This document shows, piece after piece, positions 11,161 to 13,632 of a stretch of 32,000 bases of DNA. How positions within the stretch are numbered: the first letter of the stretch is position 1; each line of letters opens with the position of its first letter. The stretch comes from Wolbachia endosymbiont of Armadillidium arcangelii (GTDB lineage Bacteria; Pseudomonadota; Alphaproteobacteria; Rickettsiales; Anaplasmataceae). The stretch spans positions 1,458,001 to 1,490,000 of the forward strand of contig NZ_CP157942.1 in assembly GCF_040207875.1 (NCBI RefSeq). Reading direction: 5' to 3'. A model generated the notes under the pieces. That model saw only the letters and a program-made list of their open reading frames with translations, made no database searches and was not told where the DNA came from. The position numbers were made by a program, and so were the translations under genes.

Positions 11161-13632
11161 TCAAAAAAAACTCACAGGATCAACATCTATTGTTACTGCA
11201 ATATTTGAACTCAAATTACAGCAATATTTCAGCTTTCTCTTCAAAGATAGACTATGTTTATTGTGTATTTTGAGTAACACTCTATACCGATATTTATTAT
11301 TTAAGAAATTTATTGCTGCTGGCGATGGGCCAAAAATTTCAAATTCTTCCGGCATCAAGCGCTGGGAAGTAGCTGAATACTGATTATGCAAAAAGCTTGT
11401 TATCTCACTTGCTGCTTTCTGCGTTGCAAATTGATCCTTACCGCAAACTATAAGCGCTATTAGCCTACTAAATGGTGGCATTTTAGCTTTGCGCCTTGAC
11501 TCAAGTTCAATTTCATAAAACAAATCCCTTTTTTGCTGCTGCAATGCTTTTATTATCAAGCTTTCAGGGTTATTAGTTTGCACTATTACCATTCCTTTCT
11601 CATTGAACCTTCCTGACCTTCCTGCAACTTGATGCAATAATTGATACGTCTTTTCTGCTGCCCTAAGGTCAGAATTTTCAAGGCCTAAATCTGCATTTAT
11701 CACTCCAACCAAAGTTAATTTAGGAAAATTATGCCCTTTAGCAATTACTTGTGTACCGATTATGATATTCACCTCTTCCTTGAGCACTGAGTCAATGATG
11801 TTACCAAGCGACTTCTGATCGCTGCTTATAATCGCAGTCTTTGCATTTGGTATTAGTTTCACTATTTCTTCAAGCAATCTTTCAATTCCCACACCATAAA
11901 GGAACAATGACTGCTCACTTTGACAATTAGAACATTTTTCTGGAAGTTTTGACTGGTAAGAGCAATGATGACACAAAAGGACGTTCTTCTTTTTGTGGTA
12001 TGTAAGCCAAACAGCGCAATTTGAGCAGGAAATTTTATATCCACATTTTTTACAAACTGCAAGTTGTGCATACCCTCTGCGGTTTAGAAAGAGCATAGCT
12101 TGCTGTTTTTTCTCTATGGTTTGTTTTATGCCTTCGAAAAGCTCATTGGAAATCCATTGTTTATTATTCACTACTTTTATGTGTGGCAACTCTGCACCAC
12201 CGAATCTTTTAGTCAATTTTACATGATTGTAATTTCCGTTTTTAACATGATAAATTGTTTCAAGCAGCGGAGTAGCTGATGATAAAACAATCGGAATGTT
12301 TTCTATTTTTGCTAAGATAATTGCCATATCTCGGGCATTATATATAACTCCTTGTTCTTGTTTAAAAGATGAGTCATGCTCTTCATCAACGATGATCAAT
12401 TTTAGGTTTTTATAAGGTAAAAAAAGCGCTGACCGTGCCCCAATAATTATCTGCGCACTTCCATTTGCGATACTGAGCCAATTATTTCGACGAGCTTTTG
12501 GAGTGAGCCCTGAGTGCCACTGAGCTATATTGCCAGATGTCTGACTGCGAACACGATTTACCAATTGTGAAGTTAGAACAATTTCAGGTAGAAGGATCAG
12601 AACTTGTGCATTACCCTCTTCTGGTGTCATTCCAGTGCTTGACACTGGAATCCAGTCTTTATCGTACAACTGCTTAGTGTACTGATTTGAAATTAAGTTT
12701 TCTGGATCCCAGTGTCGGGGCACTGGGATGACATCCTTTTTGGTAAAAATTACTCTTATATTGTAACATTCGTCTAGTTGTGTATTGAACGCTGGAATGA
12801 CATAACGTTTATTTTTGAAAGTAAATTGCATAGCAAATGGTGTCATTCCAGTACGTGGCAAAGGCAGTATGCTAAGTGTTACAGTGGGTTTTGCCTTAAA
12901 TACAAAGATGTCATTCCAGTGTTTAACACTGGAATCCAGGAATTTTGATTGTAAATTAGGTATTGGTCTTAAATTAAAATAAACGTTTGTAATAAGATGA
13001 TATAAAAAACTGGATCCCAGTGTCGGGGCACTGGGATGACAGGAGAAGGAAATACTGGAATGACACCATAGGGGAAACATCACGGAGTGAAACCTTTTTG
13101 GTAGACAATGTTCATATGTACTATAATTCTTAATCAATTCTGTAATCACAGAGAGATAAACTTCCGTTTTTCCAGACCCGGTTTCACCGTCAAGTAAAGT
13201 TACTGAATACTCATTCAAATTACTTATTATTTTATCACGAGCTATCTGCTGCTCAGAGTTTAATTTGTAGTCTATTTTGCTTATTTCCTGCTTTTGCTCA
13301 GCATAAACTAGTTTATCTATCTGATTTACCTTTAATACTCCTCCCATTATCACTTTTGCAAGCATACCAATAGGTATTACATTATATTGCGCAACCCACT
13401 CTGCAAATTCGATCAACTTTGGTCTGATGCTCGGTAAATCGACCTTTTGTTTAATGCATTTTAATTCTCGATCGCTCTTGTCACTACATTTCCAAACTAT
13501 TCCAATCAAACGCTTTCTACCAAATGGTACCACCACATAATCCCCAATTGAAACTTCAGTATCTTCCTCAACTGCATATGAAAATAACTGATCAATTGGA
13601 AGTGGTAGTAATATCTCAACTATTCTTGTCAT
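11161..13632 (-). CDS. priA: primosomal replication restart helicase PriA, carrying a 170-codon in-frame repeat insertion
   Basis: GETGSGKTEVY (Walker A), IIVDEEHD (DEAH-like), Cys-rich zinc region CKKCGYKISCSNCAVWLTYHKKKNVLLCHHCSYQSKLPEKCSNC, and QVAGRSGR. One uninterrupted 823-aa ORF. Confidence 0.9.
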   Translation of the reverse strand: MTRIVEILLPLPIDQLFSYAVEEDTEVSIGDYVVVPFGRKRLIGIVWKCSDKSDRELKCIKQKVDLPSIRPKLIEFAEWVAQYNVIPIGMLAKVIMGGVLKVNQIDKLVYAEQKQEISKIDYKLNSEQQIARDKIISNLNEYSVTLLDGETGSGKTEVYLSVITELIKNYSTYEHCLPKRFHSVMFPLWCHSSISFSCHPSAPTLGSSFLYHLITNVYFNLRPIPNLQSKFLDSSVKHWNDIFVFKAKPTVTLSILPLPRTGMTPFAMQFTFKNKRYVIPAFNTQLDECYNIRVIFTKKDVIPVPRHWDPENLISNQYTKQLYDKDWIPVSSTGMTPEEGNAQVLILLPEIVLTSQLVNRVRSQTSGNIAQWHSGLTPKARRNNWLSIANGSAQIIIGARSALFLPYKNLKLIIVDEEHDSSFKQEQGVIYNARDMAIILAKIENIPIVLSSATPLLETIYHVKNGNYNHVKLTKRFGGAELPHIKVVNNKQWISNELFEGIKQTIEKKQQAMLFLNRRGYAQLAVCKKCGYKISCSNCAVWLTYHKKKNVLLCHHCSYQSKLPEKCSNCQSEQSLFLYGVGIERLLEEIVKLIPNAKTAIISSDQKSLGNIIDSVLKEEVNIIIGTQVIAKGHNFPKLTLVGVINADLGLENSDLRAAEKTYQLLHQVAGRSGRFNEKGMVIVQTNNPESLIIKALQQQKRDLFYEIELESRRKAKMPPFSRLIALIVCGKDQFATQKAASEITSFLHNQYSATSQRLMPEEFEIFGPSPAAINFLNNKYRYRVLLKIHNKHSLSLKRKLKYCCNLSSNIAVTIDVDPVSFF
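12616..13125. repeat. composite of at least 4 palindromic MITE-like units inserted in frame in priA
   Basis: Units at about 12626-12656, 12702-12736, 12841-12865, 12911-12945, 13011-13040 and 13055-13067, with cores ccagtgcttgacactgg or ccagtgtcggggcactgg. The block sits between Walker A and the QVLILLPEI strand. Confidence 0.85.

Follow-up and report, generated by a model that had tools for sequence, protein, structure and literature searches.

A palindromic-element composite in frame within the priA gene of the Wolbachia endosymbiont of Armadillidium arcangelii

The priA gene of the Wolbachia endosymbiont of Armadillidium arcangelii carries a 510-bp in-frame insert, equivalent to 170 codons, in the helicase core of its product, primosomal protein N' (PriA). 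The gene lies in a 32,000-nt stretch of contig NZ_CP157942.1 (positions 1,458,001 to 1,490,000; assembly GCF_040207875.1), which we call the window and to which all coordinates refer. The insert is very probably a composite of Wolbachia palindromic elements (WPEs), made of two complete units, 5' and 3' extensions, a 24-nt unit and orphan termini, that would be translated as part of PriA, tolerated in a permissive loop of the protein and kept in frame by selection on PriA. Its extent, first proposed in an initial annotation of the window, was reproduced to the exact coordinates, 12616-13125, by comparison of alleles.

The insert between Walker A and the motif Ia region

The window gene is intact, and its protein is 100% identical to the annotated PriA (primosomal protein N') of the A. 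arcangelii endosymbiont. It contains the Pfam domains PriA_3primeBD, ResIII, DEAD, Zn_ribbon_PriA, Helicase_C and PriA_C, and scores 555 bits with TIGR00595 against a cut-off of 230; the 3'BD domain, two helicase lobes with their motifs, the Cys-rich region and the C-terminal domain are all present. The features that frame the insert are as follows, with the evidence for each in brackets.

11161-13632, minus strand: priA coding sequence (CDS), 823 residues, intact (open reading frame (ORF) list, Pfam, TIGR00595, protein identity).
13165-13188, minus strand: Walker A motif (motif I), GETGSGKT, residues 149-156 (translation; columns invariant or nearly so in two PriA alignments).
12616-13125, minus strand: in-frame composite insert, 510 bp, Y170-E339 (comparison with other alleles and with E. 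coli PriA, reading frames, predicted local distance difference test (pLDDT) scores, RNA fold).
12580-12606, minus strand: strand QVLILLPEI, residues 343-351, motif Ia region, where the PriA core resumes (alignment, AlphaFold2 (AF2) model).

Several comparisons locate the insertion. In the Pfam match ResIII ends at residue 171 and DEAD begins at 338, and E. coli PriA (6dcr) aligns to residues 4-166 and 342-792 with four residues of its own in the gap. The core that resumes behind the insert is well conserved, E350 being invariant in the PriA alignment and Q343, L345, P349 and I351 nearly so. From GSGKTEVYLSV to LILLPEI there are 182 residues here versus 13 in the insert-free Wolbachia alleles (wPip, WOLB0025 and wStur); relative to wPip the net gain amounts to 507 bp. 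When the 149 best PriA representatives from a library of 1.84 billion proteins are aligned with the window protein, the segment T156-Q343 measures 186 residues here versus 15-17 in 139 of the 149, and the Wolbachia cluster representative has 17. An ancestral origin of the segment is rejected, since it is missing from insert-free Wolbachia alleles, E. coli PriA and the other PriA representatives. The orthologue alignment that the initial annotation had proposed as a check thus identifies the segment as an insertion.

The repeat belongs to a described family. The NCBIfam model TIGR02697 (WPE_wolbac, 'WPE palindromic element domain') covers residues 301-336 (12625-12732) from model position 1 to 36 of 36, and scores 69.7 bits against the full-length protein and 72.7 bits against the insert by itself (cut-off 27.55). 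Rfam family RF02625 (WsnRNA46; gathering score 65.3) matches the insert twice, at 12609-12753 on the minus strand (89.6 bits) and at 12890-13054 on the plus strand (72.0 bits); we refer to the corresponding units as E1 and E2. Both matches, and a third at 23110-23260 (65.6 bits), run from end to end of the model, whose consensus structure pairs the two unit ends together. RF02625 also matches within priA of seven other loci (L009, L010, L012, L013, L016, L017 and L018, wMel-like included). WPE and WsnRNA46 are thus two names for one and the same DNA; no paper in the literature that we searched contained both 'Wolbachia palindromic element' and 'WsnRNA-46'.

Other properties of the units agree with those of WPEs. 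E1 (109 bp) and E2 (133 bp) are palindromes of about 110-150 bp with inverted-repeat ends, the family is dispersed over intergenic and in-frame genic positions within the 32-kb window, and occupied and insert-free priA alleles both exist. Residues 261-339 (module B and a 38-nt linker), used as a peptide query, matched small Wolbachia ORFs alone, and most of these bear the name 'WPE palindromic element domain-containing protein'. Such small ORFs show the 5' extension, the 38-nt linker and a 63-bp block of other strains to be parts of the WPE family as well. A metagenome scan for the downstream module, with a specific degenerate pattern of 39 nt, gave no match. An NCBIfam scan of the 170-residue insert (E <= 0.01) returned TIGR02697 alone and no Rickettsia palindromic element (RPE), a negative that holds provided that the library includes RPE models. 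An intein or a self-splicing intron was considered and rejected, as Pfam gave PriA and helicase domains only and Rfam gave WsnRNA46 and sub-threshold chance matches.

Module structure and remodelling among alleles

The insert contains four full hairpins of 31-32 nt and three orphan half termini (TGTCATTCCAG or its complement; 13055-13065, 12841-12851 and 12792-12802), in agreement with the earlier count of at least four full and several half copies. The hairpin core pattern has 13 matches in the window versus 0 expected from shuffles. It is more accurate to regard the four hairpins as terminal inverted repeats that belong to two complete elements, and not as four separate elements. In the order of the coding strand, the parts of the insert are:

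13093-13129, minus strand: 5' extension belonging to the upstream unit, GAATTATAGTACATATGAACATTGTCTACCAAAAAGG; NYSTYEHCLPKR (direct repeat D3; 70% identity with 12735-12771, the stretch before E1).
13095-13099, minus strand: A5 run within the insert (A4 in the close relative CP156070.1, L018; pairwise alignment).
13042-13065, minus strand: 24-nt half-hairpin unit TGTCATTCCAGTATTTCCTTCTCC (CHSSISFS), the unit of a short in-frame tandem repeat with strain-variable copy number.
12909-13041, minus strand: complete WPE unit E2, 133 bp, with hairpin 13010-13041, a 70-nt spacer and hairpin 12909-12939 (repeats D1, D2 and I13; Rfam RF02625).
12837-12853, minus strand: orphan terminus TACTGGAATGACACCAT (RTGMTP), end of an older upstream module (inverted repeat I7).
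12602-12854, minus strand: 253-nt tract, CDS nt 779-1031, with zero differences to the priA of wStri, wErebia and wPararge (per-segment divergence).
12803-12840, minus strand: 38-nt linker CCATTTGCTATGCAATTTACTTTCAAAAATAAACGTTA (PFAMQFTFKNKRY), a WPE 3' extension (comparison with small ORFs).
12734-12802, minus strand: half terminus TGTCATTCCAG (12792-12802) and E1 5' extension (VIPAFNTQLDECYNIRVIFTKKD, 12791-12734) (repeat and allele comparison).
12625-12733, minus strand: complete WPE unit E1, 109 bp, with hairpin 12702-12733, a 46-nt spacer and hairpin 12625-12655 (TIGR02697, Rfam RF02625).
priA insert, minus strand: candidate insert-encoded peptides FLDSSVK, AKPTVTLSILPLPR and DVIPVPR.

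In coding-strand order, 27 nt separate the 5' extension (13129-13093) from the 24-nt half-hairpin unit, and 55 nt lie between E2 and the orphan terminus (12853-12841). The extension, read as QLYE(H/R)CD..K(N/K)D, recurs in small Wolbachia ORFs, several of which are named WPE-domain proteins. The orphan terminus TACTGGAATGACACCAT is complementary in 17 of 17 positions to 13053-13069 (inverted repeat I7) and is also found in the wMel-like, wStri and wGerris alleles. The small ORF P0123 (WPE domain-containing protein) runs on past its WPE as ...TGMTPFAVHLTFKNE; the 38-nt linker is missing from the wGerris and wMel-like alleles. In alleles L013 and L002 the insert begins at the E1-side half terminus, directly behind LIKN.

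E2 reads as CHPSAPTLGSS...LDSSVKHWND and E1 as VIPVPRHWDPE...WIPVSSTGMT, so that the same DNA is read in different frames in the two units. Their relative orientation is ambiguous: the 5' extensions and first hairpins of E1 and E2 are direct repeats (32 of 32 identical), while the similarity of the spacers and the best-scoring Rfam strand point to inverted orientation, and we treat the pair as a mosaic. The initial annotation had described the insertion as nested. Strict nesting of one element in another is not demonstrated and we reject it: the apparent outer left terminus, 13053-13069, is part of the 24-nt tandem unit, which varies in copy number between strains and has no counterpart in the wStri, wTpre and wMel-like alleles. 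'Concatenated and remodelled' fits the insert better.

As RNA, the insert folds at -147.9 kcal/mol versus -94.0 +/- 5.4 kcal/mol for shuffles (z = -9.9). A terminator-like hairpin, ATCCCAGTGCCCCGACACTGGGAT, followed by the T-run CCAGTTTTTT, lies at 13014-13037 on the minus strand, the coding strand of priA.

The insert is highly polymorphic in length. Across 17 Wolbachia loci with intact ORFs the number of extra residues is 0, 79, 81, 96, 107, 110, 113, 118, 143, 151, 167, 169, 176 or 204. Among the 120 best-scoring Wolbachia PriA clusters at 90% identity, about 45 are longer than 720 residues and about 75 have at most 680 and no large insert. The upstream module is common to the wMel-like, wLsig, wLbra and supergroup B alleles, at the same codons, and wOo retains degenerate fragments of it only; the downstream module is found in supergroup B alleles and wPsyll. 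Nucleotide divergence of the upstream module is about twice that of the flanks, which marks it as old, and since it is common to the alleles of arthropod and filarial-nematode Wolbachia, the priA site was first occupied long ago.

Differences between alleles fall at the repeats. Blocks of 63 bp and 216 bp are flanked by direct CACTGGAATGACA repeats, and module boundaries coincide exactly with the conserved termini. The 24-nt half-hairpin unit is present once here, twice in wVulC (L010) and CP156070.1 (L018), and as a four-copy array in L014. The wVulC allele has lost 102 bp between the E2 hairpins and has a different hairpin variant. In wStri (L001) and wPararge (L017) both arms of the hairpin at 12702-12733 are 9 bp shorter (GATGTCATC, GATCCAGAA), and in other strains one arm alone is trimmed; every one of these changes is in frame. 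In the insert region of wCon (L002) the host flank ...GAAGGTAATGCACA(A/G)GT is doubled, with a further WPE between the copies, which suggests that recombination may have duplicated the junction of insert and gene.

The 253-nt tract stands out in the comparison with wStri, wErebia and wPararge. Around it, divergence is 6-13% in the flanks and 13-19% in the upstream module, and at the flank rate the probability of zero differences in 207 nt is at most 3e-8 per comparison. The same tract is 17% divergent in wPsyll and has 4-5 differences in wTpre and the 735-residue allele L013. We infer a recent exchange or a common source, delimited by repeat termini, and not constraint on the sequence. Between wVulC and the window, five differences fall within CDS nt 1032-1056, compared with no more than about 1% over most other flank segments. 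Taken together, the tract and the wVulC differences make the insert border look like a recombination mosaic.

These patterns raise a further, rather doubtful possibility, that WPE units act as exchangeable cassettes. Recombination would be anchored in their conserved 11-13 nt termini (CACTGGAATGACA), and it would swap blocks of 63-253 nt between the priA alleles of different strains and between genomic copies, giving the protein-length polymorphism. A bolder extension would have WPE/WsnRNA46 units cut from priA mRNA into small RNAs (sRNAs).

Reading frame, predicted structure and alternative explanations

No stop codon interrupts the 510 bp in the priA frame, as the initial annotation had noted together with the multiple-of-three length; each of the five other frames has 8-15, and only 7 of 200,000 composition-preserving shuffles of the insert are without a stop. 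The ratio of nonsynonymous to synonymous substitution rates (dN/dS), which the initial annotation had suggested comparing between insert and flanks, is 0.09-0.14, or about 0.11, for the flanks in every comparison, the recent wArc-wVulC pair included (0.13, from 14 substitutions only). For the insert it is 0.4-0.77 in comparisons with at least 90 aligned codons, or 4-6 times the flank value (Fisher p 0.057 against wVulC, and between 7e-8 and 8e-4 in six further comparisons). Where close alleles could be aligned with confidence, their indels measure 9, 24, 36, 39, 51, 63, 102, 159, 216 and 327 bp, all multiples of three. This combination of indels and frame is what a reading-frame filter would give, if selection acted on the PriA core and not on the insert peptide. 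The flanks are under strong purifying selection and the ORF is intact; we therefore read the open frame, as had been proposed, as the result of selection keeping PriA translatable.

The frame is not intact everywhere. The initial annotation had named a frameshift-split priA as evidence that would count against it, and the window gene is unbroken. In the near-identical CP156070.1 (L018 1950-4456), however, a 1-bp deletion in the A5 run splits priA into ORFs of 183 and 651 residues. Either a sequencing error in the homopolymer or a true lesion could account for it.

The protein was modelled with AF2 on a diverse alignment of 150 PriA sequences; a Wolbachia-only alignment of 18 sequences gave a mean pLDDT of 35 and was discarded. 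The model has a mean pLDDT of 80.6 and a predicted template modelling score (pTM) of 0.80, and can be superposed on 8fak_H (E. coli PriA) at a root-mean-square deviation of 3.2 Å, with a TM-score of 0.88 when normalised to the target. In blocks of ten residues, pLDDT exceeds 90 for nearly all of 1-170 and 340-823, with 72-83 at 101-120 and a few C-terminal blocks below 90. Within the insert it is below 50 at 177-265 and 280-336, mostly about 22-38, and 51-55 at about 266-279. Structure prediction, another check that had been suggested, thus separates a mostly confident core from a mostly low-confidence insert. A helix, 155-175, lies behind Walker A and a strand, 343-347, behind the insert (mean pLDDT 95 over 341-350). 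The insert is predicted to exit and re-enter the core in lobe 1 of the helicase, where the post-Walker A helix connects to the motif Ia strand. RecA-like folds have such helix-to-strand connections on the side away from the loops that bind nucleotide and nucleic acid.

The post-Walker A loop is permissive, as its length varies by 0-204 residues in Wolbachia and unrelated PriA proteins carry insertions there as well. In the unrelated PriA cluster representative P0279 a whole DUF559 domain of about 140 residues (Pfam, 135 bits) sits in the same loop, and P0165, likewise an unrelated cluster representative, has 67 residues there. P0279 resembles the window protein in that an otherwise normal PriA has a large insertion after Walker A and before the motif Ia region. 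It differs in that the insertion is a folded, endonuclease-like DUF559 domain with no palindromic repeat. PriA as a whole is a forgiving host for such insertions, because in E. coli the helicase-dead K230R protein behaves almost like the wild type in vivo, and the protein remains functional when it is split in the vicinity of residue 154-157 (PMC5778457).

The observations are best explained as follows. The WPE would be a dispersed, selfish repeat resembling miniature inverted-repeat transposable elements (MITEs), of which a composite has come to lie in the codons of the post-Walker A loop. Comparison of alleles indicates that the upstream module came first and that a second module later lengthened the insert; it also points to later deletions, tandem duplications and patch replacements that start and end in the 11-32 nt terminal repeats. 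The mechanism would be slippage, recombination or gene conversion at these repeats, exchange between strains included. Transcribed and translated with priA, the insert would form an excursion of about 170 residues, predicted at low confidence and probably disordered, on an otherwise normal PriA. Strong purifying selection on the PriA core would let only frame-keeping variants survive, as dN/dS and the indel spectrum suggest. The insert is without demonstrated function of its own, and would be tolerated because the loop is a permissive site.

Several points weigh against this account. Translation of the insert is inferred rather than observed, and solvent exposure of the loop is deduced from low pLDDT and the RecA-like topology. 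The insert dN/dS lies below 1, which may indicate weak constraint on the insert peptide, and the structured insert RNA with its terminator-like hairpin may reduce or truncate priA expression. Should the frameshift in CP156070.1 prove genuine, the clade may be able to do without PriA. WPE units do have terminal inverted repeats, a feature of MITEs, but no target-site duplication or consistent flank motif is visible around four intergenic and two genic copies (farnesyl-diphosphate (FPP) synthase and ferrochelatase) in the window; neither a transposase nor a mechanism of insertion was found, and no genome-wide search for an autonomous partner was made.

The WPE-encoded segment could have been exapted as a functional PriA module, such as a partner-binding or regulatory region. 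Wolbachia is not known to encode the E. coli-type partners PriB, PriC and DnaT. Exaptation would fit the retention of the upstream module at one position in the alleles of both arthropod and filarial-nematode Wolbachia, an insert dN/dS below 1, and the predicted strands at residues ~266-280, where pLDDT reaches 51-55. It is nevertheless improbable, as whole modules are present or absent over a length range of 0-204 residues, about 75 of the 120 best-scoring clusters have no large insert, E1 and E2 use different frames of the same DNA, dN/dS is 4-6 times that of the flanks, and pLDDT is about 22-38 for most of the insert. We also give very little weight to maintenance at the RNA level, either of precursors of WsnRNA46-type sRNAs or of structures that attenuate or destabilise priA mRNA. 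E1 and E2 match RF02625 end to end above its gathering score, the insert RNA folds far better than shuffles with a terminator-like hairpin on the coding strand, and the 253-nt tract is invariant across divergent B-type strains. However, any palindromic repeat fits a long-hairpin model on both strands, and many strains have no insert. The invariant tract includes non-hairpin sequence and differs in wPsyll, wTpre and L013, a pattern that fits recent exchange better than constraint.

The intact frame might also be a leftover, not under selection, of a priA gene that is decaying in the isopod-Wolbachia clade. The split gene of the near-identical CP156070.1 would be expected on this account, and the near wild-type behaviour of E. 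coli K230R means that damage to lobe 1 need not be lethal (PMC5778457). Yet the flanks are as constrained in the wArc-wVulC pair as in the other comparisons, the window and wVulC alleles are intact, 170 open codons are rare among the shuffles, and a difference in homopolymer length that is seen in one assembly could stem from sequencing; decay is thus highly unlikely. The probability that dispersed repeat copies were wrongly collapsed into priA during assembly is negligible. Short palindromic repeats are hard to assemble and close relatives differ by 24-bp and 102-bp blocks, but the same composite occurs at the same codons in many independent assemblies (LYUU01002088, CP156070, wStri, wTpre, OX366343 and others), on which ground we reject an artefact. 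Moreover, the 253-nt tract, which covers the downstream half of the insert, is identical in several of these strains, and Badawi et al. used PCR and Sanger sequencing for part of their homologous recombination (HR) gene sequences (PMC4224334).

Relation to known elements and further copies in the window

Both the kind of element and the priA site are already known, and novelty is low. Coding WPEs were reportedly introduced by Ogata, Suhre and Claverie in Trends Microbiol in 2005. Like those of the TIGR02697 family, the elements described here are palindromic, dispersed, and both intergenic and in frame without breaking genes, and E1 fits the curated 36-residue model. They differ in that at least two complete units, along with fragments, are strung together at a single site, which yields 170 residues, and in that one unit is read in a frame outside the protein model. 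RPEs are palindromic selfish repeats that stand in frame in housekeeping genes and are tolerated in the protein; their in-frame occurrence was reportedly described by Ogata et al. in 2000 and 2002. The phenomenon of an in-frame palindromic selfish repeat is the same, but RPEs are a different sequence family from WPEs.

WsnRNA46 (RF02625; Mayoral et al. 2014 PNAS) has been described as a small RNA with cross-kingdom targets (PMC12796755). Its covariance model fits E1, E2 and the copy at 23110-23260. In contrast to the family description as an sRNA gene, the same sequence in priA is coding DNA within an ORF.

The closest precedent is the work of Badawi et al. (2014; PMC4224334), who found WPE-like in-frame regions of priA at nucleotide positions (np) 523-1365 and 2587-2790 in an alignment of 29 Wolbachia strains, isopod-hosted ones among them, and also in addA and addB. 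The statement in the initial annotation that in-frame palindromic elements have been reported in Wolbachia is therefore correct. These regions were in frame with no premature stop, the gene being apparently active, and were cut from the alignments; Ka/Ks of priA was 0.143-0.147 (PMC4224334), in agreement with the flank dN/dS of 0.09-0.14 found here. The region at np 523-1365 begins at about codon 175 and the insert here at codon 170, which is the same site. The difference is that the 2014 study removed the regions and did not dissect them. The initial annotation had called the multi-copy insertion striking, and this stands for its size and unusual scale. It does not hold for novelty: the site is published, the window has two more in-frame WPEs, and other strains have inserts of up to 204 residues.

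One of these further in-frame copies lies in the FPP synthase ORF (farnesyl-diphosphate synthase, 340 residues; 22626-23648, plus strand), where a WPE at 23126-23249 is read as VIPVLDTGIQKALPTSISCKKPCDGEAEHEMDSSVKHWND. NCBIfam FPPsyn matches this ORF in two stretches, and WsnRNA46 matches at 23110-23260 with 65.6 bits. In the ferrochelatase (hemH) ORF (28995-30023, minus strand) a short WPE of 72 bp, at 29688-29759, is in frame as 24 residues. Intergenic copies with variable spacers are found at 3321-3400, 18296-18350, 20836-20964 and 24583-24719; unlike the genic copies, those at 20836 and 24583 are interrupted by stops in every one of the six frames. The priA insert is simply the largest in-frame WPE case in the window.

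The priA gene itself has a second, shorter site:

11344-11379, minus strand: short WPE-derived site at about residues 752-763, SATSQRLMPEE, a degenerate hairpin remnant (allele comparison).

The surrounding segment, from ATQKAA to EIFGPSPA, measures 69-123 nt in the loci read; it contains a recognisable WPE in wStur (L007) and is missing from P0099. In the AF2 model pLDDT is below 50 at residues 756-759. We take this remnant to be, plausibly, the np 2587-2790 region of the 2014 study.

Upstream of priA, on the strand opposite to it, lie a conserved ORF of 318 residues (13737-14693, plus strand), which has no NCBIfam match and whose counterparts at related loci have no recorded Pfam match, and an ankyrin-repeat ORF of 1169 residues (14710-18219, plus strand), whose counterparts at related loci have a Peptidase_M9 match.

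As a discovery the insert is of little importance, the priA position having been published in 2014 (PMC4224334) and coding WPEs reportedly in 2005. What is added here is the dissection into modules, the allele series, the dN/dS of the insert, the invariant tract, the structural placement and the equivalence of WPE and WsnRNA46. Annotations of a 'WsnRNA46 gene' and predictions of sRNA targets should allow for a multi-copy repeat that also occurs within ORFs. The insert regions need masking in phylogenetic and selection analyses, because they evolve and recombine unlike the rest of priA. The priA insert provides a worked example in which the loop of a superfamily 2 (SF2) helicase lobe absorbs 170 foreign residues here, and up to 204 in other strains, and it shows how selection on a host gene sieves repeat-driven indels to multiples of three.

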